64,000 nucleotides of DNA from a virus (IMGVR_UViG_3300028840_006907:405618-469617), one strand, 5' to 3'. Numbered from the stretch's first letter, positions 3,827-45,076 are shown. Notes: generated by a model not told the origin, from the letters alone. Numbers and translations are program-made.

Positions 3827-6800
3827 ATGGCTGAGAATTTAGGAACGGGTGTTTCTTTTGTTGATGAGAGTAATGGGTATAATTATGATAAAGTTGTTTT
3901 CCAAAAACAAAAGCCACCTTTAGATACTGAATTAAATCTTGCTCAAGAGATACAAAATTTACTGGCAAAAAGACATATAAAAGGAATGCCTTCTGGTTGG
4001 TTAAATATAGAGGACTTTTATACAAGTTCATTATTAGAAAACCAATTTTATACCCAAGATCCGGACACAGCTATTCCAGAATATGCTGTTGTGAATGGTA
4101 TGGTTCTTTATGTGACTAACACTGGTACTTCTGAAACAAATTCAAATTTGATCACTCTTACTGATCCTCCTACCTCAGGTAATCTTGTTAATGGTGTAAT
4201 CCTAGAAGTATGGAGAGCTTTATTAGATACAGAAACCGATAATAACAGACCTGATTCAACAGTGGTTATAGATTCGTTAATGGCTATTGATGCCGTTACT
4301 GAAAATAGTGCCTGGACAGTCGGGGAAAATGGGCTTATTCTAGCTACTGAAAATGGTGGTCAAACATGGTCGGTTCAATTAATTGATACAAAAAAGAAAT
4401 TAAATGATGTTCATTTTATAAATACAACAGTAGGTTGGGTAGCCGGTGATAATGGTGCCATAGGTAGAACTTCATCTGGTGGTGTAACTTGGCTCGTATT
4501 ACAGAGTGGCTATACTGAGAATTTCAATGGGATTCATGCAGCTACACATCTAATTGCTTGGGTTGCTGGTGATGGTGGTATTATTCTTAAAACCGTCAAT
4601 GGAGTTAACTGGTCGGCTCAAAATAGTAATGTTACAGCAAATCTTAATGATATTTATTTCTATGATAGTTTAGTAGGATGGGCAGTAGGAGATAATGGTA
4701 CTATAATAAAAACCACTGATGGTGGATCCAATTGGATAACATTAACAAGTGGTACCACAGAAAATTTAAACGCTGTCTTTTTCTATGATTTAAATTTTGG
4801 TTTTGCTGTTGGTGATAATGGTACAATTTTAAGATCATCTGATGGTGGGCTGTCCTGGGTTGATCAATCTGGTAACATATACACTGGTTCTGGTTATACA
4901 AGTCTTTCAGTGAATTACACTGATGTCACAATGGCCCCTTCTCTTGATATCCACGTGACCAATGAAGAGGTAACTTCCCAATTTACAGGTTCAAATAAAA
5001 ATTGTACTGTAGTGAATGTTCCTATGACTAAAGGTGATGGGTTAGGTACAACAACGAATAGCCCTGCTGATGTCGATGGTGAGGGTAATTTAAGTACTGT
5101 TGTAACTGTAAATGGTACTTCTGTTCTTATAGATAGCATTGATGGAACTACAGGTCAAATTATTCTTAATCAGGCTCCTCAAGCATGTGATACAGTCCTT
5201 GTCTCTTATTGGCATAAAGTCAGCCCTGATATTTTTACGGGTAGGGCATGGATTACAGGGGCATCTGGAACAGTGTTGATGAGTCCAGACATTGGTGCTA
5301 ATTGGAATCAACAAACTCCAAATACCAGCTATGATTTAAATGGTGTAAGTTTTGTTGATCAAAATAAGGGATGGGTAGCTGGAGCATTTTCAGTGATGCG
5401 ACATACTGAAGATGGTGGTACTACATGGACTACTCAAATCAGTGATACCGTTTCTCGAAGGGTGCAACGGGTTTATAATGAAGGTAATGTAGATACTGTT
5501 ATCTTTTTGGATGATGAAATGATCCATCCTGACACAAACATAGAAACGACAAAAAGAGTTCAAATTCAATATAAAATAAGAGTTATAGAAAATGTTGATC
5601 CCTTTTCATATCCGGATGCGGGGCTAGGCTCAGCGGGTATTGTGGCTCTAGGGCCAAATGCTACAGGATCATTTGCTTATCAGAACATGGGTTCTACGAC
5701 AGGTGATTATGGTTTATGGCAAGCGAAATGCTCTAATACAGTAGATGGGTACGCATGGGCTATCCCAATGTTTTTTGTCAATAGAAGAAATAGCACTACT
5801 TTTAATGCTGCCAATAATACAAATGGTTCTAATGCTAAAGGTACTTCAAATATCCGACCTGATCTTTTGACCGGTGTTGATGTTGTAGATCAGGATATTC
5901 TTGATGTCAGGAGACAAATATTTATCCCTTCAGTGACTGAATTACTAAATAGTAGTTTTGATGCCCTTATGAATAATCAGTTAAAAACTCGATTTTTCAG
6001 ACAAACCACTGGTGGTGATAGTTATTCTGTTGAGCCTTTACAATTGGATTATATCGCGCATGGTTCTGGTACTGAAATTGATGCTACATTGAGCGAGGCT
6101 GTTTCGGGACAAGTCACATCAATTACAACAACGAGTACAATATCTCAAAGTGTTCCTGCATCTACTTCTTTACCTTTTGATGTGACATTAAGTATTCCAG
6201 TAGGAACTCGGGGATTATTTCATCCTAATTCTATTTATTATACAGCTCGTTATGTAAGTAATAGTGCCACATATGATGGGAAACCTATTCCGGGAGAATT
6301 TACTGGTATAGGTACAAATTCAGTAACGTTTAATTTTAGTGCAAAAGTAAACACTACAAATGAAGACACTAATTTAGTCAGTTATGATATTGTGGCTCAT
6401 TATGTAATATTTAGTCCTAAGTCATTGAGTAAAATTCCTTCTACTCCTCAGCTAGTAGAAAATACAGGAACGGTAAGTGAACCTTCTTTTTTCTATAGAG
6501 GAGTATTTACCAGTGAAACTTCTGGTAGAAAGATTGAAGAATGGGATTCAGGTATTTCAGGATATCCGAGTTATACTCTAGCCTATCCTGTTATAGAGGC
6601 AGGAAGTACTGCACAGGAAGCCCGAGCTTCTTCGATTGAGGTACATTTATATATAAGACTAACTAGTACTGAAATACAAAGTATTAATCAGATTAAGATA
6701 AGTCAGGAAGTTTATCCTGATGTTGCAGATACGACTTCTTATTATAATCTTTACTGTGTCAGTGAAATAAATAATATCACTTCTGGTTTTAGTTTTAAGA

Positions 6801-8870: not shown

Positions 8871-11800
8871 ATGACTCAAATATATCTACCAGATTCAGAA
8901 GAACTCGGAAGACGCCGATTCCATGATGCTAAAAGTGATCGTCGTAATTTAAAAAATCTCGCTGAGCAACGTCTCCTTGAGATGCGAACGTTATTGCCTT
9001 CTAATTACCCTAAAGATCCCTATAGTAGTAATCTTGCTTTATTCCATCGTTTTAATGCTCGGGAGCTGTCTCGAATAAGAATCTCTAATGATGATATATC
9101 AAGAGATTCTCAATACACTACGACAAGACCAGAGTATCTTCATCAGATTCTTGGTGAGAGGCTTTTTTTAGGCAATAGAATAGCTCCTCTTGGTTACAAT
9201 GACCAGACATATAGAGAATTTTTAATAGCGATTAAAAACACTTATTTGCGGGGATCGCGGGTTGATGATATTGAAGCATTAGCCAGTCAGTTTACAGGTC
9301 AGGAAGTTATCATAAAAGAGTTGTATAGGGAATTAAGGAATCCTGATACATCTCTTGATGTCACTGACACAAATTACATGGTTGTTGAAGCATTGATACC
9401 TGGTCAATTACCTGCTGGTTATAATATAACTTCATTATTAAATGATTTAGATTTTTACATTAATTTAGTGCGGCCAGCGCATGTTTTATATGATACACGA
9501 TTGATATGGACTGAGACCATTGATGTAAATAAGACAACAGATATCTATTTTGGTGATACCGGTGGTGGTTGTGTCCCTCTTTATATTTTTGACCCTTTTG
9601 ATGAAACAACGCTTATGGCGTTGCAGGTATTTGTCCTTCCTACTAGTGAAGGAGCAACAGGTCGAATAGATTCCATTCATCATTGGGATTACCTTTTTTA
9701 TTTGGAAGATGGCACCAGAGTATTAACTGAACCAGGTACTCAGGGAACACAGATTTTTGATGTAAATGGTCGTCAGATTAGTTTTAGCTCTCTTGAAATA
9801 GGTGATCATGTAAAAATAAATTATCAAATTATACCTGGTAATTTTCAATTCTGGTGGTATCCTGTAGGTTTGTTTCCTACATGGAGTTCACAGTTCTATA
9901 GAGATTATTACAGACTTCCCATATTCCAGGAATATGTAAAAAAACATATGGATTCTAAGGGGAGATTTCCTCTTCAGATAAGAACAACTGAAACGACCGT
10001 TTGTGATCGTTGGGTAACAGATGCTCTTCAGCCTTATTATGAAGATTTAAGAACAAATTGTTCCAGTGGAAGTGTCCAGTCTAAAGATTATTCTTCTACT
10101 CTTAACATCAGAATGGGAAGTGGTCATTTTGCCAATCCTTATGGTACAAACCAGACAGCTCTGCCTGGAAATGAATTTGCTTTTTTCATGGAAAACACTC
10201 CCTTAACTGATGGATCGAGTAATCCAGCTACAGTTTCAGATGTTTCTGTGATGTTAGATGGAAGTTCTTTACCTCCTCAACCGGTAGTATATGTCGATGC
10301 TAGTTCCGGGAAAGTGCAATTAAGTGAGGACCATGAATATTGGGATAATACAGCATTAACTTTTCCTATTCCTGGGGAAGAGTTCCAATTTGATTATTCT
10401 TATCTTCAGGATAGTACTAATTATGATACATCATCTATATATGTCTATGGAGTGGGTAGCTGGCAGATGCCAAATGCTCCTCTTGTAGAAGGTGATAGTA
10501 CGGGTATTCTTGCGGATACAAGTGATGTAACATTATCTGTAGATGGTACAGTAATAAGTAATGCAATAACAGATGTAAATGCTTTATTAGGGCATGTAAC
10601 AGTTAATCAACTTTCGAGCTTTTGGAATAGTTCTGAATTAGGACGTTTACCTCAGGTAGGAGATGAGTTTTTATTTAGTTTCTTTTATGGTAAGAAATAT
10701 CAATATTCTTGTCTTTTTGATGAATTGGGTAGAACTTTTGATACTTATATAGGTCCGAATTCAACTTATGGTATTGTTTTCGACGGAGAATTAAACCAAA
10801 ATCCTGAAACAGCTCCTATAACACCAGATGCAACTGCAGTAATAGGTTATCGTTATCGGGGTTATTTATTACATCATAGTTCGGTATTAAATTCTCCTGA
10901 TACGTTACAATTAAATACTTTTCAGAAACCTGCTACTCGTGCTTCTATAATAAATCAGGCTAATACTATAAATCATTTTAATATTTTCTTTTCACCTGAA
11001 TTTCTTTATGATACTACGGCATATGATTATTTAGATGATTCTTATCTTGAAAATGGATTAGACCCGATTCTGAAATTAAATGTAGGTACTCCTCCTTTTC
11101 AAAAGACATGGTCATATCATCCAGGATTGGTTAACAGTAGAAAATTACAAGATATAAGAACAAATCATCGTTTACTACTTTATTCTGATTTACTACTGAA
11201 AGAGTTCCAAGAAGGTAATGAAGACATACCTTTAAGTTCTATATGTGATTCAGAACGGGTAGAATTTAGAATACGTATTGATGGTGATGATATACCGCCT
11301 TTAGAAGAATGTCCTCCGTGGATTTTATTTGATTCTGTTCAGGTCGATGATGTTGAAGTTACAGTCCCGGGATTTTATCAGGGTGTACCAAATGTCAGAG
11401 TACCTGGAATGAATTTACGCGAAAGTTTTATTCTTAGGGAATTGGAATCTACTGGTGTTGGCGAATATACTTATACCTTTAATACTGATAGTAGTGCTAC
11501 TCCTGAATATTACTTACCTGCAACATTTCCATATACGTATAATGGTGATACAATTAGCTTTCCTGCTTTACCTGTTATAGATATTAATGGTAATCCGGCA
11601 ACGATTAGTGATATAGAAGTTAGGGTAAATGGAGTTTTATGGACTGTATTAAGTCTTGATCCAGTGACAGGTTTTGTACAGGTAAGTCCGTATCCGGCTG
11701 GTCCGGCTATTCAAGTAGAGACAAAATATTACATAAACAATGTTGTGACAATGCCTATGGCAAATTGGGATTGGTCTAGGATTCTTGATGACGATGATGT

Positions 11801-22472: not shown

Positions 22473-25400
22473 ATGGCACCAAAAAAACAATTTGTAAACA
22501 CAGGATTTATGGAATTTGTGGAGGATACTGTTCAAACCAGAATAGCCGAAATGCCATGGATGGCTGATCGTACGTTTAAATTAGCCAAGAGCATGGAAGA
22601 AGTGGAAAATTACATTGATAGGGCGATAGAAGCGAAAAGATGTGCCCTTGATTTGGAAACGACAGGACTTAATACAAGGGTAAAAAAAGTAGATGGTAAA
22701 ATTGTTCCTATTGGTAAAATAGTAGGTTTTGCTTTATGTTATGATCCGAAAGTGGCCATTTATATCCCTATTAATCATAGAGAAGGGATAGAATTTAATC
22801 TTCCAGAAGAGGCTGTTTTAAAGGAGATAAAACGTCTTTGTTATAATTGTATTACAATATACCATAATGCTAAATTCGATTTAACTTATTTAAAGAATTA
22901 CGGTATTGTTCTTGATAATCATAATCAATTCGAAGATACACTTTTGCTGGCGTATTTGCATGATTCAGGAAGAAAAGCCAATAAATTAAAGGATCTCTCT
23001 CCAGAATTACTTGATCAACCAATGTTAAAATTTAATGAGGTTGCCAAAGAAGGTCATTTTGATCTTGTCTCCCCTGATGTGGGGTATACATATGGAGCCT
23101 CTGATGCTATGTGTACTATGGATTTATATATCTTTTTTACGGAACAGGAAATTATAAAGAGTCAACAGATGATATATAACTTAGAGAAACGGGTTGTATT
23201 TGTTATGATGGATATGGAAGCAAATCTAATAAAAATTGATGTTCCATATCTCAAGGACTTAAAAACAAAAGTTGAAAACCGTATAGAAGATATTAAAAAA
23301 GAGATACATCAATTGGTCGGTTATGAATTTAATTTGGGAAGTTCACAGAAATTAGGTAAAATACTATTCGATGATTTGAAATATAAATATCCAGAGAAAA
23401 CAAAAACCAAATCTGGGCAATACAGCACTGATAGTAAAACCTTAAATAAAATAGCTGACCTTTACCCCATTGTTAAGAAGATCATAAATTTCCGTGGATT
23501 GGAAAAAGTTTTATCGACATATATTAATAATCTTTTGAACAACCACGATGAAGAAGGTTTTGTAAAACTTCAATTTAAACAGACTGGAACTGATACCGGA
23601 AGATTTTCGAGTCCTGGTGGTCAGGGTATTCATATAGATGGGTCTTCAGGAGTTAATGTCCAGAGTATTCCAAAGATGCCTAGTGAGGATAATCCTGACA
23701 TTGATATGAGAAGGGCGTTTATTGCTCGTCCTGGTAAAACGATGGTAGCGATTGACTATGCAAATGAAGAGATGCGGGTAGCTACAAATATTTCGAATGA
23801 GACTGCCTGGATTGAATCGATTCATAAAGGAATTGATTTCCATACTGCTACAGGTGCTATTATCTCGGGAAAAGATCCTAAGGATGTATTAAAAAGTGAG
23901 AGGAAAATAGGAAAGACAGTTAATTTTTTGGCCCTTTATTTAGGAGGCCCATTTACTCTTGCAGGTAATGCTAAAATAACTGTACCGGAGGCCAAAAAGA
24001 TTCTAGCCACATTTTTTGCAGGAGTTCCTAAACTGAAGAAATGGATTGACCGGGTGATCGTGGTAGCTAGAAAAGAGAAATTTGTTAAAACTATTTTTGG
24101 GCGTACTAGACCGTTAAATAAGTACTATGATAGTGGGGATAAGGGATTGGCTGCTCATGCAGATCGATGTGCAGTTAATACAAAAATTCAAGGTTGCCTT
24201 TGTCAAGAAGAGCGCTGTTTAACAACAGAAGGTTATTTATCTATTATAAAAATCAAAAAGTTAAAGGAATCAGGCCAAAATTTAAAAATATGGACTGGGG
24301 TTTCATGGGAGGATTTTGAAGTATTGGATCGTGGAGAGGCTCAATTAGCGATAATTGAATTAAAAAATGGAATGATTCTTCATTGTGATACACGGCATGA
24401 AGTATTAACAGTAAATAATGAAAGATATGAATTTAAAAAATTTAATGAATTAACAGAAGATACTAATATATGTATATCTCGCCCTCAATTATTAAAATTT
24501 GGGAGTTATCCTGAGGAAATTATTTTTGAGGGAAATGTATGGAATGCACAGAAATTGAAAGTGAGTACGGCAGAGGAGTGGGATTTTATAGCCTATTTAT
24601 TAGGATGTGTTATTGGAGATGGCTCAATATACATTGATAAAAAGGCATCTAAATATGTTATAACATTAAATTTTGGTGAAGAAAAGATAAGAAGAATATT
24701 TCCTGATCTTAAGAGAAAATTAAATGATCTCGGATTAAATATTTCGGAACCTGTTTTAAATAAAGGTAGTAAAGGTATTTGTTATAAAACGAGTATCTGT
24801 TCCGTTACTTTAACAAAACTTTTTGGAGAAATGGGTTATCATTTTCATGATGCTCGTGATAAGAGAATCCCTCAACGAATTATGGAATCCCCTATAAAAA
24901 TGAGACAATCATTTTTACGAGGTTATTTTGATACAGATGGATGTAAGAAAGAGGCCAATAAATATGGTTTCCATACTCCTAATAAAGATCTATTGAGAGA
25001 TATTCAATTATTAGCTTGGACCCTAGGATGTCCCTCTACTATTTATGATTGTGGTGATGGCTCATCCATATTTAATTGGATGAATTATCGAATTTTTGCG
25101 GAATTAATGGACTTAACTTATAAAAAAGAAGAGAGAAAATGTAACACACAAAATATGCCTTTACCTGATTTTTTAAGAGAGCCTATATTAAATTCTTTAG
25201 GGAATTGTTATGTAAAAAATGGGAATGATCGCTCATATGTATGTAAAGTTAGGAAGGGTAAAAATGTTAGTTTACCTGGAATAGTGTCATTATTAGAAAG
25301 TTATAATTGTGAACTACCGGAAATTTATTATCATTCCAAATTAGAAAAGAAAAGAGTTTTAAGTAAAAAAGAAGTTACATACACTTTATCAGTAAAATCT

Positions 25401-26261
25401 CCTTTACATCGGTTTGATTCTGCTGGAATTATAAGTAAAAATACTTCGGCGGATATTATGAAGGCTGTCATGGCCCGGATGAACTCCTGGCTCACGAGAA
25501 ATAATCTGCATGATGATATAAAAATATTGATTACCATGCATGATGAATTGGTTTTTGAGATTACAACTGAAAAATTGCAGATACTGGTACCAGAGATTTG
25601 TAAGATCATGCAGTTGAATGATATTATTCAGGGTCAATTGAAATGGCCCATTCCTTTGGAAGTTGATATACAGTATGGTGATACTTGGAGAGTTAAAGGT
25701 GATTTTCTTAAGGATTTTCCTGATTTGAGGAATAAATTAAGTGAGCCTTTAATGGAATTTGAATCTTTACAGAAGATAAAAGATGATGTGCCAAAAGATA
25801 AAAATGATGAACCTCCGGTGGAAAGTAATAAAATTGAAGAAGAAAATTCAGAGAAAGATTCAAATGAGGTACCAGATAACCAGATTATAGAGGAAAAAAC
25901 TCCTTCTGAAATACAAGATATAGAAAAGTCTGAACAACATGATGTACCTAAAGATAAGGAGGTTTTGGAGAAAGTTGATAGTGGTACTGTAGATAGTAGT
26001 AAAATATCAGAAAAAAAAACTCTAAACGGCGGTGATATATCGGGTCAATATTTGATTTATACTCTGCGAGAATTGAGTACGATAAGTTCACGATGGTTGA
26101 ATGATATTTTGGTTTTTTTGAATGATGAGGGCAATCGATATGAAGAGAAAGATAAAAAAATTTTAAAAATCCGTGACAGATCAGGGAACTCTTTATTAGT
26201 TTCAGAGTATAAAGTACACCCTGAAAGTTTTTCCCTTTTGGCAAGATTTTTTGGGATATGA
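22473..26261 (+). CDS. family A DNA polymerase with 3'-5' exonuclease domain, interrupted by an intein, plus C-terminal extension (1262 aa precursor)
   Basis: Exo motif ALDLETTGL; Pol I motifs DYANEEMRVA (A), RKIGKTVNFLALYLGG (B), NTKIQG/TSADIMKAV split by the insert, ITMHDELVFE (C). Confidence 0.9.
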   Translation: MAPKKQFVNTGFMEFVEDTVQTRIAEMPWMADRTFKLAKSMEEVENYIDRAIEAKRCALDLETTGLNTRVKKVDGKIVPIGKIVGFALCYDPKVAIYIPINHREGIEFNLPEEAVLKEIKRLCYNCITIYHNAKFDLTYLKNYGIVLDNHNQFEDTLLLAYLHDSGRKANKLKDLSPELLDQPMLKFNEVAKEGHFDLVSPDVGYTYGASDAMCTMDLYIFFTEQEIIKSQQMIYNLEKRVVFVMMDMEANLIKIDVPYLKDLKTKVENRIEDIKKEIHQLVGYEFNLGSSQKLGKILFDDLKYKYPEKTKTKSGQYSTDSKTLNKIADLYPIVKKIINFRGLEKVLSTYINNLLNNHDEEGFVKLQFKQTGTDTGRFSSPGGQGIHIDGSSGVNVQSIPKMPSEDNPDIDMRRAFIARPGKTMVAIDYANEEMRVATNISNETAWIESIHKGIDFHTATGAIISGKDPKDVLKSERKIGKTVNFLALYLGGPFTLAGNAKITVPEAKKILATFFAGVPKLKKWIDRVIVVARKEKFVKTIFGRTRPLNKYYDSGDKGLAAHADRCAVNTKIQGCLCQEERCLTTEGYLSIIKIKKLKESGQNLKIWTGVSWEDFEVLDRGEAQLAIIELKNGMILHCDTRHEVLTVNNERYEFKKFNELTEDTNICISRPQLLKFGSYPEEIIFEGNVWNAQKLKVSTAEEWDFIAYLLGCVIGDGSIYIDKKASKYVITLNFGEEKIRRIFPDLKRKLNDLGLNISEPVLNKGSKGICYKTSICSVTLTKLFGEMGYHFHDARDKRIPQRIMESPIKMRQSFLRGYFDTDGCKKEANKYGFHTPNKDLLRDIQLLAWTLGCPSTIYDCGDGSSIFNWMNYRIFAELMDLTYKKEERKCNTQNMPLPDFLREPILNSLGNCYVKNGNDRSYVCKVRKGKNVSLPGIVSLLESYNCELPEIYYHSKLEKKRVLSKKEVTYTLSVKSPLHRFDSAGIISKNTSADIMKAVMARMNSWLTRNNLHDDIKILITMHDELVFEITTEKLQILVPEICKIMQLNDIIQGQLKWPIPLEVDIQYGDTWRVKGDFLKDFPDLRNKLSEPLMEFESLQKIKDDVPKDKNDEPPVESNKIEEENSEKDSNEVPDNQIIEEKTPSEIQDIEKSEQHDVPKDKEVLEKVDSGTVDSSKISEKKTLNGGDISGQYLIYTLRELSTISSRWLNDILVFLNDEGNRYEEKDKKILKIRDRSGNSLLVSEYKVHPESFSLLARFFGI
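24195..25442 (+). mobile_element. intein with LAGLIDADG homing-endonuclease domain, inserted in the polymerase (about 416 aa)
   Basis: Insert begins with Cys after KIQG and ends with Asn before TSADIM; LAGLIDADG-like motifs LLGCVIGDGSIYID and FLRGYFDTDG; N-terminal boundary ambiguous by about 21 nt. Confidence 0.7.
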
Positions 26262-26511: not shown

Positions 26512-27273
26512 ATGCTACCTACTAATGATATTGCTGTCTTTGCCCAAAAAAATGATGCAGAATTTCGTGCTCTAGTCCGAAAACAGTGCGAGTATCTTGA
26601 TTATCCTGGTTCACCTGATGATGTTGTCCAAGAGCTTTATGTGAAGTTCTTAACAAAAAAGAAAATCATTGAAGCTTATGATCCCAGTTATAATGTACAA
26701 ATATCTTCTTACCTTTTTAAAATTATCCGTAATTTTATAATCACCAGAGTGAAAAGTCACGATGGTCGATTTCGTCGGTGCCGTGTTTTAACCCCTTCTC
26801 CTACTGATGATACTAACGAGTTCGATCTTATTCCCGCTTATTATGATGTTTCAGATGATTTCTACGACAATCAATATTTTAACAATAATTCTTTTATGGA
26901 AGAATTCAGCGATTTTGAGCGTCAGTTTTCAAAATCACCTCAGAACATAAAATTTAAGTTACGAAAGAGACAACATAAAAATACTTCTCTCAATTTTTTA
27001 AAAATATTGGAACGTCTTCAAAAGCGTGGTAAAATCGGTGAAGAATTTAATGAAATCAAGGATTTAATCACAGAGATAGAAGAAAACGGGTGTACTCTAT
27101 TGGACCTTTTCCGACTTCTGTATAAGGGATACAACAATAAAATGATCGCTCGGATTTATGGAGTATCAACAACTACAATAAGTGCTATGAAAAGCAAATT
27201 AGCAAAAGCCATGATTAAATACGGTATAAAGTATGATCGAGCTACGGTGTCCAAAGTGTCAATCCAAAGTTGA
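26512..27273 (+). CDS. putative sigma-70/ECF-like sigma factor (253 aa)
   Basis: Region-2-like VVQELYVKFLTKKKIIEAYDPSYNVQISSYLFKIIRNFII and region-4-like HTH KMIARIYGVSTTTISAMKSKLAKA. Confidence 0.5.
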   Translation: MLPTNDIAVFAQKNDAEFRALVRKQCEYLDYPGSPDDVVQELYVKFLTKKKIIEAYDPSYNVQISSYLFKIIRNFIITRVKSHDGRFRRCRVLTPSPTDDTNEFDLIPAYYDVSDDFYDNQYFNNNSFMEEFSDFERQFSKSPQNIKFKLRKRQHKNTSLNFLKILERLQKRGKIGEEFNEIKDLITEIEENGCTLLDLFRLLYKGYNNKMIARIYGVSTTTISAMKSKLAKAMIKYGIKYDRATVSKVSIQS

Positions 27274-29168: not shown

Positions 29169-29405
29169 ATGAAAAAGGATGAGATTAATTATAAATATTT
29201 GACCGATCCTGAATTTTCGATAAAGGCAGATCTTAAAGCAATTGAAATTTCTAAAAAGATAGATGTAGAAAATATAGGAATAGAACTAGCTCTATTTGGT
29301 CAATGTTTACTTAATTATATAGATGAGGAAGTGGTATTGATTGATCCATTAAAATATGAAATAGTCATAAATAAAAAAGGTAAGGAGGATATAAATGTTA
29401 CCTAA
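29169..29405 (+). CDS. hypothetical protein (78 aa)
   Basis: AAAGAGGA RBS upstream. Confidence 0.4.
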   Translation: MKKDEINYKYLTDPEFSIKADLKAIEISKKIDVENIGIELALFGQCLLNYIDEEVVLIDPLKYEIVINKKGKEDINVT

Positions 29406-29577
29406 TTCGAAAATTGTAGTTTTTAAAAATGGGAATTCAAAAATTATTGGGAAAGAAAAAACCAATGATTGTTACGAATTGTCAAATTTGGGACGGGATG
29501 CTGGTAGAGTTACTAAAGATGAAGATCGTGATCATGTACCTGTACATCAAGATGTACATAACTCAGAAAGGGGATAA
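29395..29577 (+). CDS. hypothetical protein (60 aa)
   Basis: Track ORF overlapping the previous stop; AAGGAGG upstream. Confidence 0.3.
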   Translation: MLPNSKIVVFKNGNSKIIGKEKTNDCYELSNLGRDAGRVTKDEDRDHVPVHQDVHNSERG

Positions 29578-29579
29578 TC

Positions 29580-29891
29580 ATGTCAAAAGAAGTACATGTT
29601 GATTGTGAGATAAGATCGATGACCATTATGGAAAATACATTGAATCAAATGAGAATCAGTTATAATGTAAAGAATGCTGATACTTTTACCATAACGAGAC
29701 CTTATCATAATATTGTTATAAATGGTAAAAAAGGTAAGGTTTCATATGATGATATGGATAAAAAGTATGTGGAAAAAATTCTTCAGAATTACACGGTTAA
29801 TTGGTACAAAGATCGTGCTATTCGTGAAGGTAATGAGATCCGAGAAGAAGTTCAGGCGAATGGGGAGATTCATATCCATGTCATTCGATAA
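29580..29891 (+). CDS. hypothetical protein (103 aa)
   Basis: AAAGGGGA RBS then ATG. Confidence 0.45.
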   Translation: MSKEVHVDCEIRSMTIMENTLNQMRISYNVKNADTFTITRPYHNIVINGKKGKVSYDDMDKKYVEKILQNYTVNWYKDRAIREGNEIREEVQANGEIHIHVIR

Positions 29892-39350: not shown

Positions 39351-39657
39351 CATGTTCGATTCTGTGAAAGGGTTACAGGAATTTCTGGATAATCCCACAG
39401 AGAATGGGTTTGAATTAAAAGAGGGGGATATGTATCATCGTGATAGTGATACTGTTTATCTCCCATTATTTAAAATAGGGCATATTCTAGATAATAAAGA
39501 ATGCCTAGAATTACATGCTTGTAAGACCTGTAGTGTAAGAGGAGTGCATGTAACATCATTGAAAGATTTTTTCTATTGTAGTTCGTGTAAGAAATTGATT
39601 CATGTTTCAATGTTGAAACCTGTAAAATACAGTAATGGGACTTATATTGATGCTTGA
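39328..39657 (+). CDS. hypothetical Cys-rich protein (109 aa)
   Basis: Track ORF; CKTCSV...CSSCKK. Confidence 0.45.
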   Translation: MTVSTETNMFDSVKGLQEFLDNPTENGFELKEGDMYHRDSDTVYLPLFKIGHILDNKECLELHACKTCSVRGVHVTSLKDFFYCSSCKKLIHVSMLKPVKYSNGTYIDA

Positions 39658-40012
39658 AGAGGAATGGTCGAAAAGTTTATACAAGGTAATTGGTTATCGG
39701 ATAACTAAAAAGAGACTTGAAAATAAATTAACGCAACAACAATTATCTGATAAAGCAGGATTATCCAGAACATCAATTACTCTGATAGAGCTAGGTAAGC
39801 AGAAACTCCCTATTGACAGGGTATATAGAATTGCAGAAGTACTAAAAACTGAACCACGTTTCTTTTTTCCTGATGTGGAAGATGTTTTCGGTATAAAAAA
39901 AGAAGCAGAGAGCTTTTTTACAAAAGAGGAAGAAACACAAATAGCAGGAATTTTAAGATCATATAAATTATATAAAACAGCTCTAAAAGACTTGTTGGAA
40001 CAGTGTGAATAG
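39635..40012 (+). CDS. XRE-family helix-turn-helix regulator (125 aa; start may be the Met at 39650)
   Basis: HTH block LTQQQLSDKAGLSRTSITLIELGKQ. Confidence 0.6.
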   Translation: MGLILMLEEEWSKSLYKVIGYRITKKRLENKLTQQQLSDKAGLSRTSITLIELGKQKLPIDRVYRIAEVLKTEPRFFFPDVEDVFGIKKEAESFFTKEEETQIAGILRSYKLYKTALKDLLEQCE

Positions 40013-40505
40013 ATATGATATTATACTTGGTAAAGATCCACCTCCTGCGCCTCCTCCATGTTGTAGAAGGATGATTGTAGGTTCAAGGAATAGTGGGAAG
40101 ACAACAGCTTTATTAAGAATATTAAATATCTATTTAAAGTTAGGTTATCCTTGTTTACTATGTATAATTAAATCACAAGAATCTTTCATTTTGAATATGT
40201 TAGGAGCGATGATTGAAAACAACCCAAAAAGGATGAAGAATTTAAAGACTTGTTCAATGTCTAATGAACGGTATATGTATGGTCATCCCTATCTGTTCTA
40301 TGATAATGTTGATTTTTATATGGATAGATTTCAGATGTTACCACCGGATAAAATTGTCTATGCTACATGTGATGAGAGTCAGTTGTTAAAATACAGGGAA
40401 TCTTTTGGAAGTAGAGTGATGAATATTTTAGGGTTGAAATGGGATGTTTTTTTGGCTGAAGAATTGGTTAATAAAAAGGTTAAGATTGAATTGATTTTTG
40501 AATAG
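40005..40505 (+). CDS. MxRYDI-family protein 1 (166 aa), GTG start
   Basis: N-terminus (M)NRYDIILGKDPPP; overlaps the upstream stop by 8 nt. Confidence 0.55.
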   Translation: MNRYDIILGKDPPPAPPPCCRRMIVGSRNSGKTTALLRILNIYLKLGYPCLLCIIKSQESFILNMLGAMIENNPKRMKNLKTCSMSNERYMYGHPYLFYDNVDFYMDRFQMLPPDKIVYATCDESQLLKYRESFGSRVMNILGLKWDVFLAEELVNKKVKIELIFE

Positions 40506-40513
40506 GGGTATAA

Positions 40514-40813
40514 ATGAATCGTTATGATATCTTGTTAAATAAAAAACCTTCTTTGTTTGATAAAATGGATCCATTGACATTGGAAACTTTTAAAGAAAGT
40601 ATGAAGGATTTTCAATTAAAAAGTAGACCATCATCTTTATTATCAAATTTTTCTATAGGTCCACCCAGATATAAGAGAGATGAACCGATCCCATTTAGGG
40701 GTAGTGACCAAACAGGTAATGATCAGACTTCTCAATATCCAATGTATGAACTATTTGATATAAGTTTTGTGAGAGAAGGTGGTGTCCCTATCATTGGAAA
40801 TAGCATAGTATGA
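40514..40813 (+). CDS. MxRYDI-family protein 2 (99 aa)
   Basis: N-terminus MNRYDILLNKKPSLF. Confidence 0.55.
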   Translation: MNRYDILLNKKPSLFDKMDPLTLETFKESMKDFQLKSRPSSLLSNFSIGPPRYKRDEPIPFRGSDQTGNDQTSQYPMYELFDISFVREGGVPIIGNSIV

Positions 40814-41220
40814 GTAGATATGATATTATAAAAGGGAAAAAAGTGCCTATAAAACGTGATCAACCTAATTTAATAATGGGGGTTGATATAGGGAGTGCTG
40901 ATTCAGAAACAGTTGTAGCTTTAATAGCGAAGCTTCAGAAAGAACAAAATGAAAATATTGAAATAGTGGGCATCTCAAGAGGGCATACGAAAAGAGGTTT
41001 TCTTCATGAGCATCCAGGACTTCAACAACGATTAAATATTGGCAATGATCATGTAATTGTGGATCGAGGGGATTGGGAAAGAGCTAGGCAAACTTTAACG
41101 GGGATTGATGGGACTTATACTAATCTTCCTCCACCTTCTTCACCTCCTTTACATAGAGGAAGGACTGTTCCTGATTTAAGTAGGTATAATCTTTCAAGTT
41201 TAAATATCAGCAATTCTTAA
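40810..41220 (+). CDS. MxRYDI-family protein 3 (136 aa)
   Basis: N-terminus MSRYDIIKGKKVP; C-terminal block HVIVDRGDWERARQTL shared with 41229 ORF. Confidence 0.55.
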   Translation: MSRYDIIKGKKVPIKRDQPNLIMGVDIGSADSETVVALIAKLQKEQNENIEIVGISRGHTKRGFLHEHPGLQQRLNIGNDHVIVDRGDWERARQTLTGIDGTYTNLPPPSSPPLHRGRTVPDLSRYNLSSLNISNS

Positions 41221-41228
41221 GGTAATGT

Positions 41229-41855
41229 ATGGGGCGTTTCGACATAATACTTAATAAGAGATCTCTGAAAAAAGTTTCTGGAAAAGAACCTGATGATTTG
41301 AAAGAATCAGAGGTAAAAAGAATCGAGATAGCTTTATTTCAAGACGCTATTAATGTAAGATCTTCTCCTGAAGATGCAATGACTATAAATAGAAATATGA
41401 ATGTAGCAGGAGCACCAGCAGTTAGTATTATTCAAGTAGAGATTGAAAATGAATATAATGTATCTGTTGGAGATGCGGTTGGTGTTAATTCAATTGGAGA
41501 AATTGTTCCAATTATTAATGAGAGTATAATACCTATTGGTATTATATCAAATATATTAGATATATCTTGTTGTCGTGGTGTACTTCATATTCATCCAGAT
41601 ACACAATCTCGATTAAATCTTGATGAAAATCATGTTATTGTAAATAGGGGTGATTGGGAAATAGCTAGAGAACTTCTTGTTCAAAATGGTTATAACAAAG
41701 ATCTAGAAAGTAATTCGTCTCTTCCAACTATAAATCTTGAGTCAAATAGAGAATTTAATGATTCTGCTGATGCAAGTGAATTTGATATGAATTCGGACGA
41801 TTCTAATGAGTCATTTAATCCTGATAATAACTGGGAAGATGATTTACCCTTTTAA
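41229..41855 (+). CDS. MxRYDI-family protein 4 (208 aa)
   Basis: N-terminus MGRFDIILNKRS; C-terminal block HVIVNRGDWEIARELL. Confidence 0.55.
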   Translation: MGRFDIILNKRSLKKVSGKEPDDLKESEVKRIEIALFQDAINVRSSPEDAMTINRNMNVAGAPAVSIIQVEIENEYNVSVGDAVGVNSIGEIVPIINESIIPIGIISNILDISCCRGVLHIHPDTQSRLNLDENHVIVNRGDWEIARELLVQNGYNKDLESNSSLPTINLESNREFNDSADASEFDMNSDDSNESFNPDNNWEDDLPF

Positions 41856-41867
41856 TCGAGAAAATAA

Positions 41868-42011
41868 ATGAATCGATATGGTATAGTTTTAAATAAAGAG
41901 CCGAAAAAGAAAGAGTTAAATCAGAAAATTAATAATAGAGTTGATGGTCAAAAAACTGTGAATTATAGAGGAATTAGGAACATCACAGGTATAACAGGAG
42001 CTATGTGGTAA
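41868..42011 (+). CDS. MxRYDI-family mini-protein 5 (47 aa, below track cut-off)
   Basis: Translated by eye: MNRYGIVLNKEPKKKE...; stop overlaps the next ATG (TAATG). Confidence 0.4.
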   Translation: MNRYGIVLNKEPKKKELNQKINNRVDGQKTVNYRGIRNITGITGAMW

Positions 42012-42709
42012 TGAATAGATTTGATATAGCACTGAATAAAAAGAAACCAGTAGAAAAAACTATAAATAAAGTTAAAGGATCTTTATTAAGTAATATAGTA
42101 AATCGTTTTCAGAATAAGTCAGATGGTTCTAGTAATACTCAAATACCTCCAATTGGTCTAGAAAGACAAATAGAGAGAAATCCTGGTAATTGGGATTCTC
42201 CAGATAATTCTAATCAAACAAGAATGCTTCAAGGTCAGACAGGTACTCAGATAATTCCAGGGGTTACTCATATGTTCGGTGTAACTGGTACTCAAGGGGT
42301 TCGAGGACAGCCAGGTCTTACTATTTCTTCTCAAGGTCAACTTGGTATTGATATCTCTTCTCCAGAACAGGAAGAATCAGCTCTTGGAGAACAAATACAT
42401 CGAGAAATGGCAGTACAAGCTGAGGAAGTTGCAAGGACTATGTTAAATATGGGTACTTCAGCTATAACTCATTCTGGGGATACTATGAGTTCTCGTGGAC
42501 CTACTTCTAGGCATCTATTGATAGCAGGTCCTGACGGGCACCGAATAATTATTCCATTAAGATCTTTGGCTTATTCTATTAGTGAAAATGAAAATGGCCG
42601 TTCCACTCTTCATTTAACACTTCCTACCCGAGAAGCCCAGGCGCTTAATCGAGATATTCGAGCTGGTTTTCAAAGACAAGGGGAAGTTGATGGAGGTCGC
42701 TATGGATAG
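42011..42709 (+). CDS. MxRYDI-family protein 6, Gly/Thr/Gln-rich (about 232 aa; ATG inside track ORF 42005..42709)
   Basis: N-terminus MNRFDIALNKKKPVEK. Confidence 0.55.
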   Translation: MNRFDIALNKKKPVEKTINKVKGSLLSNIVNRFQNKSDGSSNTQIPPIGLERQIERNPGNWDSPDNSNQTRMLQGQTGTQIIPGVTHMFGVTGTQGVRGQPGLTISSQGQLGIDISSPEQEESALGEQIHREMAVQAEEVARTMLNMGTSAITHSGDTMSSRGPTSRHLLIAGPDGHRIIIPLRSLAYSISENENGRSTLHLTLPTREAQALNRDIRAGFQRQGEVDGGRYG

Positions 42710-43097
42710 GTTTGAAATTGCAGTTCATTTTCAAAACCAAAGAAAAAAAATTAAAGCTTTTCGTTTTCCTTCTACCAGGTATGCAGGACAGGCCCTGAAA
42801 TATATTGAGTATGCTATTACCAATGATGGTATCTATATTGCTGATAACGTACCTCAGGATGCTTTAGACAGCGCTGTAATCCAGGCTAGTAAAATTTATG
42901 ATGCTCCTATAGTGATAGAATTGGAATCACAAGCTCGATTATTTTCCATATCGCATTCACATAAGGTTTATTCATTGGAAAATTTACCCAAACAAAAATA
43001 TGTAATCTGTTATAATTGTTCTGAAAACAGCCTCCCTTATGATGTGCAGGTAATAGGTACCATTTTTGGGCATACCAGAAATATAAAATTTATTTGA
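42702..43097 (+). CDS. MxRYDI-family protein 7 (about 131 aa; internal Met of track ORF 42687..43097)
   Basis: N-terminus MDRFEIAVHFQNQRKK; 8-nt overlap with the upstream gene. Confidence 0.5.
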   Translation: MDRFEIAVHFQNQRKKIKAFRFPSTRYAGQALKYIEYAITNDGIYIADNVPQDALDSAVIQASKIYDAPIVIELESQARLFSISHSHKVYSLENLPKQKYVICYNCSENSLPYDVQVIGTIFGHTRNIKFI

Positions 43098-44245: not shown

Positions 44246-45076
44246 ATGATCAGTATCTTTGACTATACTAGCTATAAAGATTTTATTTCCGATTACTATA
44301 AAGAGCAAAAACAATTAAATCCGAAATTTTCATATCAGTATTTTGCTGATAAGGCTGGTTTCCGGACTAAAACTTTCATACCCAAAGTTATTAGTGGAGA
44401 AAAAAAACTAGCTCAACGTAGCACCCATATGATTACTAAAGCTATGGAACTGAATAAAAGAGAGGAAAAATATTTCATAGCTCTGGTTAATTTTAATAAT
44501 TCTAAGAATATCGATGAAAAAGAATATCAATTCTACCAATTACAATCACTTGGTAAGAAGTCAAAAAAATTTCAAACTTTAAAAAATGAGTTTGATTACT
44601 TCTCTAAATGGTATCATGTTGTTATTTATGAATTATTGGCATTTTATGATTGGAAAAATGATTATAAGATTTTAGCAAAAGCAGTAGATCCTCCTATAAC
44701 CGAAGTCCAGGCACGGAAAGCGGTAACTTTATTAAAAGAATTGGGACTTATAAAAAAGGGATCATCGGGTAAATATGTGCATTGTAAATCTATTGTTATT
44801 AGTGATGAATTAAGAGAATTAGCTTTTAAGAAATTTCACAAACAAGTATTAGAATTGGGTCAAAATGCCCTTTTTAAAGGGATTGAAAATCAAGAACTTA
44901 CTACAATTACAAATAGAGTTTCTATAAAAGCATTATCCTTAATAAAAGCTGAAATGAAAAATCTTCAGATAAAAATAGCTGAAATTATAGATGAGGATCA
45001 AGTACCTACCAATGGGGTATTCCATTTGAATTTGCAATTATTTCCAGTATCAAAAACAGAAAAGGAAAAGAAATGA
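44246..45076 (+). CDS. hypothetical protein resembling the TIGR02147 (Fibrobacter-type paralogous) family, possible DNA-binding (276 aa)
   Basis: Blocks IFDYTSYKDFISDYYKEQKQLNPKFSYQYFADKAGF, YFSKWYHVVIYELL, HLNLQLFPVSK match the family as I recall it; unverified. Confidence 0.5.
   Translation: MISIFDYTSYKDFISDYYKEQKQLNPKFSYQYFADKAGFRTKTFIPKVISGEKKLAQRSTHMITKAMELNKREEKYFIALVNFNNSKNIDEKEYQFYQLQSLGKKSKKFQTLKNEFDYFSKWYHVVIYELLAFYDWKNDYKILAKAVDPPITEVQARKAVTLLKELGLIKKGSSGKYVHCKSIVISDELRELAFKKFHKQVLELGQNALFKGIENQELTTITNRVSIKALSLIKAEMKNLQIKIAEIIDEDQVPTNGVFHLNLQLFPVSKTEKEKK

Follow-up and report, generated by a model that had tools for sequence, protein, structure and literature searches.

The window analysed here is a 64,000-nucleotide stretch of DNA (IMGVR_UViG_3300028840_006907:405618-469617) that forms part of an uncultivated huge phage of ∼470 kb. 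The same proteins are encoded on JGI metagenome contigs of 388,651 and 469,541 bp, and among GenBank phages we found neither near-identical DNA nor a close relative of the window. Gene products of the window include a baseplate J-like protein and a component of a tail-fibre network; SNF2 and DnaB-like helicases, a primase and an intein-containing family A DNA polymerase; and a sigma-like factor, glycosyltransferases, an AAA+ ATPase, a NADAR protein and a homologue of the major vault protein (MVP). Our subject is a short N-terminal peptide, referred to below as the tag, with which eight plus-strand genes of the window open, one of them standing apart from the others and seven being consecutive at 40005-43097 (Table 1).

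The eight proteins begin M-[NDSG]-R-[YF]-[DGEQ]-I-[ILAV]-[LVK]-[NGH]-K. The near-identical N-termini noticed in the preliminary description, which was made from the nucleotide sequence alone, are all present as described, with three start coordinates refined. In the first gene of the array the tag sits on the GTG at 40005; the start of the sixth is the ATG at 42011, where the mechanically called open reading frame (ORF) opens at a GTG at 42005; and that of the seventh is the ATG at 42702, the mechanical ORF running from a TTG at 42687. When the pattern R[YF][DGEQ]I[ILAV] was run against the six-frame translation of the window, it gave 8 matches against 2.5 expected from 200 shuffles (maximum 7), and all 8 correspond to residues 3-7 of plus-strand ORFs of at least 47 residues. 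A looser scan over all start codons of the window yielded no further genuine copy, and an internal MDRFQML at an in-frame methionine within tagged gene 2 was set aside as coincidence, not being conserved in the orthologues. The weakest tag scores 15.4 bits and retains the first half of the motif alone (M-x-R-[YF]-x-I-A), and the smallest tagged protein, of 47 residues, is recorded as a called gene on three contigs.

Table 1. Genes of the window that carry the tag, and three neighbouring genes
Feature	Position	Strand	Description
Tagged gene 1	31685..32389	+	234 residues, MDRYQIAVGKKPDP...; immediately 3' of the AAA+ ATPase; conserved Cys-rich family
Tagged gene 2	40005..40505	+	166 residues, GTG start, (M)NRYDIILGKDPPPAPPP...; small P-loop NTPase-like body
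Tagged gene 3	40514..40813	+	99 residues, MNRYDILLNKKPSLF...; singleton body cluster
Tagged gene 4	40810..41220	+	136 residues, MSRYDIIKGKKVP...; paralogue of tagged gene 5
Tagged gene 5	41229..41855	+	208 residues, MGRFDIILNKRS...; paralogue of tagged gene 4; long acidic tail
Tagged gene 6	41868..42011	+	47 residues, MNRYGIVLNKEPKK...; singleton body cluster
Tagged gene 7	42011..42709	+	232 residues from ATG 42011, MNRFDIALNKKKPVE...; disordered region, short collagen-like GXY run, conserved C-terminal domain
Tagged gene 8	42702..43097	+	131 residues from ATG 42702, MDRFEIAVHFQNQ...; weakest tag
AAA+ ATPase	30093..31682	+	529 residues; degenerate D1-like and active (predicted) p97/Cdc48 D2-like domain; Pfam AAA
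Major-vault-protein homologue	35187..37628	+	Pfam MVP_shoulder 1.4e-23, Vault_3 3e-11, Band_7
HTH_3 (Cro/CI-type) regulator	39635..40012	+	Stop overlaps start of tagged array

Conservation of the Tag as a Peptide

Related contigs were recovered from JGI/ENA metagenomes and IMG/VR with degenerate DNA patterns for the tag, and further loci, on contigs of up to 590 kb, were reached through homologues of the AAA+ ATPase; the loci and proteins of these related metagenomic phages bear the numbers L003-L051 and P0002. The tag recurs in ∼15 related metagenomic phage lineages, and 36 distinct N-termini give the consensus MNRYDIALGKKPP, i.e. M-[ND]-R-Y-[DS]-I-[AL]-L-G-K-K-P-P-(P), followed by a Pro/Lys/Glu-rich stretch. 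Positions 3, 4, 6, 8 and 10 are the most conserved (Arg-3 and Tyr/Phe-4 in 36 of the 36 copies, Ile-6 in 34, Leu-8 in 30 and Lys-10 in 33), and conservation extends through residue 13.

In the eight copies of the window, Arg-3 is encoded by CGT (three copies), AGA (three), CGA (one) and AGG (one). Arg-3 is invariant in the 29 distinct copies taken from the window and its relatives, yet it is specified by five codons drawn from both codon families, with six codons in use for Leu-8 and four each for Gly-9 and Pro-12. Because Arg-3 is coded by both AGA/AGG and CGN, and synonymous sites vary freely, we conclude that the tag is constrained as a peptide, as the preliminary description had proposed; a duplicated nucleotide-level leader, the explanation that would have undone that proposal, is ruled out by the codon usage.

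The tag also takes lineage-specific forms. In the window it reads NR[YF]DI.LNK or ...LGK, in L029 and L031 NRYEIL.GK, in L022-L025 DRYSI.LGK, and in six L036 proteins, including the orthologue of tagged gene 1, [DN]RF[QRK]ILKG, so that all copies within one lineage vary in step. This concerted change is not the product of gene conversion, since the codons differ; it is what would be expected of co-evolution with one lineage-specific, presumably phage-encoded, receptor.

Beyond these phages we found little that resembles the tag. Scanned for the motif, 100,044 bacterial and archaeal genomes returned only chance MNSYDI matches in Romboutsia UppS, and three AT-rich metagenome matches were likewise dismissed as chance. 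The literature, searched with the motif strings, gave no match; a tag-only profile run against a word-indexed protein database recovered the window's own 47-residue protein alone; an exhaustive search with a 30-position profile, which was dominated by its first sequence, found low-complexity proteins only; and a first pattern scan of IMG/VR, specified without Gly at position 9, gave no match. By inspection, a Sec, Tat or lipoprotein signal can be rejected, the tag being polar or amphipathic and then running into Lys, Pro and Glu, with a single Arg and no hydrophobic stretch. The motif system is real, statistically secure and previously undescribed.

Diverse Bodies Behind a Common N-terminus

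Grouping of 60 tagged proteins from the window and its relatives by the part that follows the tag gave 30 body clusters, 22 of them singletons, and comparison of the tagged proteins with Pfam and PHROGs revealed nothing beyond a weak P-loop match for tagged gene 2 and a weak collagen match for an orthologue of tagged gene 7. With the first 14 residues removed, tagged genes 4 and 5 are the only two of the eight that are related (38% over 98 residues, E = 6e-13), in agreement with the early observation that these two share HVIVxRGDWExAR and that the other bodies are mostly unrelated. The accompanying view of a diversifying cargo set holds only in part: tagged genes 3 and 6 have no detectable relatives, but five of the eight (tagged genes 1, 2, 4/5, 7 and 8) have orthologues in related phages. 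For four of these families the tag is retained in every orthologue, the exception being the family of tagged gene 1. Orthologues of tagged genes 2, 4, 7 and 8 stand in the same order, and tagged, at 15970-18570 of L029 and in the matching part of L031.

Tagged gene 1 has tagged orthologues in P0002 (56% identity), L029_12625, L031_11593 and L036_14436, the last with the L036-type tag. Its protein gave no significant match in Pfam or PHROGs, nor did the family profile in the PDB, and an AlphaFold2 model built on a two-sequence alignment was unusable (predicted local distance difference test score (pLDDT) 35). The body of tagged gene 2 contains GxxxSGKT and hhhhDD/DN motifs and weakly matches AAA_14 and TK; its orthologues L029_15970 and L028_12664 are likewise tagged and begin with GTG. 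The orthologue of tagged gene 4, L029_16569 (253 residues), is also tagged, as are those of tagged gene 7, namely L029_17378, with GDTGMQ repeats (Pfam Collagen, E = 1.8e-4), and L031_13964, with GVQVQ repeats. This family combines a repeat region of variable length, made of collagen-like GXY or pentapeptide units, with a conserved C-terminal domain. In phages, collagen-like repeats are known mainly from fibre and virion proteins, and we count their presence here as support for a role in the head or virion. The orthologues of tagged gene 8 open with MSRYTIAIQLQN (L029_18175), MSRYKIAIQLQN (L031_14563), MDRYKIAIGKK (L003_8506) and MSRYDIAKRK (L030_15061).

The protein of tagged gene 5 (isoelectric point 4.3, net charge -21) has a C-terminal segment of ∼50 residues, encoded at about 41700-41852, that is rich in Asp, Asn, Ser and Glu and ends in ...NNWEDDLPF. 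We take this tail to recall the C-terminal tip of the bacterial single-stranded DNA-binding protein (SSB; DDDIPF in E. coli), and it might act as a mimic of the SSB tail, to which host enzymes of DNA metabolism are recruited.

The Tag on Major Capsid Proteins of Related Phages

The largest body family consists of tagged proteins of ∼325-365 residues from L009/L012, L022 (= L040), L050/L051 and L025. Searched against the PDB, the profile of this family matches the major capsid protein Gp27 of Bacillus phage G (6wkk_A) with E = 3.8e-74, profile positions 40-308 aligning with residues 7-279 of 280, and it weakly matches the Pyrococcus furiosus virus-like particle 2e0z (E = 0.006). Searches with tblastn recovered annotated major capsid or head proteins of phage G, of Tunturiibacter phage Tunturi_5, of an uncultured 485-kb phage and of cluster C mycobacteriophages. 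By homology, these tagged proteins of four lineages are HK97-fold major capsid proteins.

Their conserved N-arm is preceded by the tag and a linker of 40-70 residues. It is at this N-arm that the untagged capsid proteins of ten IMG/VR relatives and of phage G, Tunturi_5 and LR745208.1 begin; tag and linker are an add-on to the capsid N-arm. L009/L012 and L025 each have two capsid paralogues per locus, both of them tagged; T4 likewise has two, for hexamers and vertices. These lineages are tied to the clade of the window by common tagged families and neighbouring genes: L030_12180 resembles L009_222, and L003 has three genes in common with L028, L029 and L031. Small tagged genes adjoin the tagged capsid genes in the relatives. 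Over the window and 9.4 kb of upstream sequence, all genes of tail or baseplate type lack the tag.

Close strains differ in what follows the tag, the bodies being deleted or replaced just 3' of it. Tag remnants or duplications lie at L009 5334-6344, L012 3736-4725, L022 1393-1434, L029 17327-17374 and L028 13232-13309. They include mini-ORFs of 15 and 25 codons that are hardly more than a tag; a capsid paralogue (L009_5334, L012_3736) with two tags 32 residues apart, the second of which starts with a CTG codon; another capsid protein that ends in a tag-like RNRYAIALGKKFA; and a tag joined C-terminally to the product of the gene before it. Such remnants and duplications suggest frequent deletion or recombination at the tag boundaries.

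We made several further observations around the tagged capsid genes. The gene at L050 5720-6664 is intact (314 residues), whereas in the near-identical L051 (10245-10940 and the next ORF) a frameshift splits it into ORFs of 231 and 82 residues, and in both loci the capsid gene is preceded by an 85-residue tagged gene that resembles the capsid N-arm. In L051 a gene for a protein with sigma-70 region 4 (9354-9992) immediately precedes the tagged capsid gene, and similar ORFs occupy the same place in L025 (3292-3930) and L024 (3-650). Near this sigma gene the tagged-capsid loci also hold clamp-loader-like and NusG/KOW-like genes (Pfam) and an ORF read as a FEN-type nuclease. The neighbourhood of sigma and clamp-loader genes recalls the late-transcription arrangement of T4; the window has its own sigma-like gene at 26512-27273.

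A Proposed Head-docking Role for the Tag

The preliminary description took the tag for a shared targeting or recognition element. Its presence in ∼15 lineages and on at least 30 unrelated body families, the Pro-rich linker and the joint variation of the copies speak for that interpretation, which as a whole is supported in part. On these grounds the tag is very probably a docking element that acts at the peptide level and is read by a common partner. The alternating hydrophobic residues Tyr-4, Ile-6 and Leu-8 would fit a β-strand-like, amphipathic recognition element carried on a flexible Pro/Lys/Glu-rich linker, and a single shared, phage-encoded partner probably recognizes it. As to the nature of this partner, we favour, with a probability of roughly 0.55, a component of the assembling head, so that the tag would bring into the prohead the capsid protein or proteins and, with them, a variable assortment of small proteins. 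We read the tag as an element of head assembly because the capsid proteins of four tag-bearing lineages carry it as an add-on. Candidate partners would be the portal, the maturation protease, a protein of the scaffold or core, or the capsid protein itself through its inner face or its N-arms. Once in the prohead, tagged proteins may enter the host along with the DNA, as the internal proteins of T4 do. Receptor identity, packaging and possible cleavage are matters of inference, as is a tagged capsid protein in the window's own phage.

Several observations weigh against a role in the head. The link to the capsid is drawn from relatives and not from a capsid gene of the window's phage, and the tagged genes of the window lie among replication and regulatory genes, outside any head module. 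Some of the bodies look non-structural, one being P-loop NTPase-like and another having the SSB-like acidic tail, and the relative of tagged gene 1 in L014 (30% identical) is untagged. In L028 a copy of the tag, SSRYSIALGKAPD (27 bits), is found at 5672-5710 in a disordered linker of DNA polymerase A (gene at L028 3623-6412), with the polymerase domain on one side and a conserved C-terminal domain on the other, and ahead of a Pro/Ala-rich stretch; it is absent from the L029 and L031 orthologues, and it is more in keeping with a general hub-binding motif than with a packaging signal. Compared by eye, the tag consensus has at most Tyr-4 in common with the IPIII propeptide of T4, and the tagged N-termini show no T4-type processing site: residue 10 is mostly Lys, as given above, and no Glu stands at a fixed distance from the tag, Glu being enriched at residues 17-20 without a fixed position, although cleavage at some other site is conceivable.

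Likeness to Known Targeting Peptides

The preliminary description had compared the tag with the capsid-targeting sequence (CTS) of phage T4. The HK97-fold capsid proteins bearing the tag in four lineages lend this comparison weight, with the reservation that they come from relatives and not from the phage of the window. In T4, a large myovirus, packaging into the prohead core needs no more than the 10 N-terminal residues of IPIII, positions 4 and 7 being critical, and the internal proteins IPI, IPII and IPIII form a diverse set that has the CTS alone in common (PMC9026906; PMC3012670). The likeness is that an N-terminal peptide of ∼10 residues is set on small, fast-changing and otherwise unrelated proteins, here with variable carriers alongside conserved ones. 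The two systems differ in that T4 has a Glu cleavage site near residue 10, where the tag has Lys-10, and in that the tag runs into a Pro-rich linker and is, in a few copies, not N-terminal. They differ further in that the tag is also found on the major capsid protein of relatives, whereas the T4 major capsid protein does not, to our knowledge, carry the CTS.

The loading peptides of encapsulins, which are joined to their cargo by a flexible linker, offer a second possible comparison for the tag and its linker, and the tagged capsid family weakly matches 2e0z, which is encapsulin-like. In encapsulins a short terminal peptide suffices, may stand at either end of the cargo, and serves several cargo types per HK97-fold shell (PMC7355545). 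In the present case, by contrast, the shell-type protein also bears the tag; the tagged capsid proteins have their homologues in genuine phage capsid proteins (phage G gp27) and not in a separate compartment; and the tag, again compared by eye, has no match to the loading-peptide consensus.

Short N-terminal motifs on large, rapidly diversifying sets of unrelated proteins are also familiar from effectors of eukaryotic pathogens (RxLR, PEXEL and CRN LxLFLAK) and from type VI secretion effectors (MIX-type markers). The analogy is conceptual only, in that those motifs mark proteins for export from the cell and the proposed role of the tag is in particle assembly.

Other Possible Readers of the Tag

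Rather than a head component, the reader of the tag might be the p97/Pvc15-like AAA+ ATPase, which would recognize it for unfolding, chaperoning or threading of tagged proteins into a particle, or for their timed removal, and which might do so together with head targeting. It pairs a degenerate D1-like with an active D2-like domain and matches substrate-threading AAA proteins. A precedent is found in the Photorhabdus virulence cassettes and other extracellular contractile injection systems (PVC/eCIS), where the tandem-domain AAA ATPase Pvc15 is required, its D2 is the sole active ATPase domain, and N-terminal payload signals are needed for Pvc15-dependent loading (PMC11495950). The window resembles these systems in having diverse, tandem, payload-like genes with an N-terminal signal and, adjoining tagged gene 1, a fold-level analogue of Pvc15. 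Genes of the tagged gene 1 family lie directly 3' of the ATPase in the window, L029 and L031, and in L028-L031 tagged genes cluster within a few kilobases 3' of it. However, close homologues of the ATPase (56% identity in L033, 61% in L035) stand in the same gene order in loci of ∼21 kb that hold no tags; more distant homologues in L032 and Rhizobium phage RHph_I4 are also without tags in the local stretches examined; and no such ATPase lies near the tagged capsid genes of L009, L022, L025 and L051. The PVC payload signals are, moreover, 50-70 residues long, disordered and weakly conserved (PMC11495950), where the tag is a sharp 10-13 residues, and we are dealing with a replicating phage, not a tailocin-like particle. 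The position directly after the ATPase, noted in the preliminary description, is a conserved order for the tagged gene 1 family and for that family only. Since the ATPase persists in syntenic loci that are free of tags, we see in it a possible accessory and not the receptor; as an obligate partner it is weakened by the same loci, and recognition by the ATPase seems to us unlikely. A bolder form of this idea, in which the tag is a general, programmable sorting code of the whole phage clade, one peptide being read by a dedicated machine such as a p97/Pvc15-like ATPase at the portal or a vault-like shell, strikes us as similarly doubtful. The capsid protein, a P-loop NTPase, the DNA polymerase of one phage and uncharacterized small proteins by the dozen would then all be directed to the particle or compartment, amounting to an ATP-driven protein loading of the phage head for which no precedent is described.

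The copy in the L028 polymerase linker, together with bodies seemingly tied to DNA metabolism and the untagged L014 relative of tagged gene 1, which stands beside genes read as recombination genes from their N-terminal sequences only, could instead indicate recruitment to some other phage-built hub, either a shell formed by the vault homologue or a replication and assembly factory, with the capsid protein as one client. The MVP homologue lies 2.4 kb upstream of the array and recurs in L028 (47% identical), yet it is absent from the equivalent stretches of the tag-rich L029 and L031. Its occurrence across the loci thus gives no support to it as the partner of the tag, nor to the vault-particle idea raised in the preliminary description. 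Known vault cargo docks through a folded interaction domain about 160 residues in size rather than through a short peptide, and we know of no compartment protein in this phage clade. The tag on both capsid paralogues is more simply explained by head assembly, and we hold a hub of this kind to be quite improbable. Still less probable, in our view, is a short linear motif for a host protein (a protease adaptor, chaperone or polymerase) common to host-takeover proteins. Many tagged proteins are indeed small, fast-evolving and without known relatives, and lie beside a regulator as early or accessory genes do, and lineage-specific variants could follow different hosts; but the phage's own capsid proteins carry the tag in relatives, several tagged families are conserved in a core-like rather than accessory fashion, and the bacterial and archaeal genomes scanned lack the motif apart from the chance matches. 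An effect in cis on translation, at initiation, in early elongation or by stalling at the following polyproline, would account for the almost invariably extreme N-terminal position, for the PP or PPP that often follows, and for the motif on a presumably highly expressed capsid protein, polyproline needing EF-P for efficient translation. Against this stand the free variation of synonymous sites, including AGA versus CGN at Arg-3, conservation as far as residue 13, the copies in the L028 polymerase linker and 32 residues into L009_5334 and L012_3736, the lack of the Pro-Pro pair in most window copies, and a concerted lineage change with no obvious translational cause, all of which make such an effect highly improbable.

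Turning again to head docking, its logic is known from T4; what is new is the sequence of the tag, its breadth (at least 30 families), its carriage by the capsid protein and its phylogenetic setting. If targeting to the head is correct, this would be a second, independently evolved case of the T4 capsid-targeting principle and the first such signal common to cargo and the capsid protein itself, and in uncultivated megaphages it would flag candidate injected proteins, for instance takeover or anti-defence factors. Among the hundreds of proteins without assigned function that huge phages encode, a shared address label marks a subset that probably travels together, giving an experimental handle on them. 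The tag could serve to load foreign proteins into very large capsids, and its lineage-specific variants are natural data for finding the receptor by co-evolution.

Neighbouring Genes and Other Features of the Window

The AAA+ ATPase, a candidate though unproven handler of tagged proteins, matches the Cdc48/p97 D2 domain in the PDB with E = 1e-41, and its AlphaFold2 model (pLDDT 83.7) aligns with type II AAA proteins over ∼550-600 columns. It is a core gene of a large clade of huge phages, represented by more than 100 protein clusters of 55-75% identity on contigs of up to 590 kb. The genes leading up to it have a conserved order, namely SNF2, DnaB, primase, PolA, glycosyltransferase, a 60-residue gene (29395-29577), a 103-residue gene (29580-29891) and the ATPase. 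Several of the homologues contain inteins; in L028 no gene of the tagged gene 1 family follows the ATPase; and the distant homologue in Rhizobium phage RHph_I4 is followed by DUF1257 and DUF2997 genes.

Inteins are a recurrent feature of these phages. In the window, inteins with LAGLIDADG endonucleases interrupt the DNA polymerase (22473-26261), and those of relatives (L009 955-4428, L035 1-2420 and L033 18117-20759) lie in glycosyltransferase, SNF2 helicase, UvrD helicase and AAA+ ATPase genes, with their presence differing between close strains.

Between tagged gene 1 and the array, the MVP homologue adjoins the NADAR gene (ADP-ribose-processing) at 34276-35112, and two tandem paralogues at 32779-33438 and 33469-34038 have signal-like hydrophobic segments at their N-termini and near-alike bodies (QEREDR...VPFYEWSIELDAA...GHCASIGYPIPYDVQLTNPLK) with no match in Pfam. 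Beyond the array, a DUF4423 protein (44246-45076) closes the long plus-strand block, the coding strand switches near 45.1-45.7 kb, and minus-strand genes run from 45694, among them those for a 1376-residue protein with an M23 peptidase domain, a chitin-synthase-like glycosyltransferase and a MaoC-like dehydratase.

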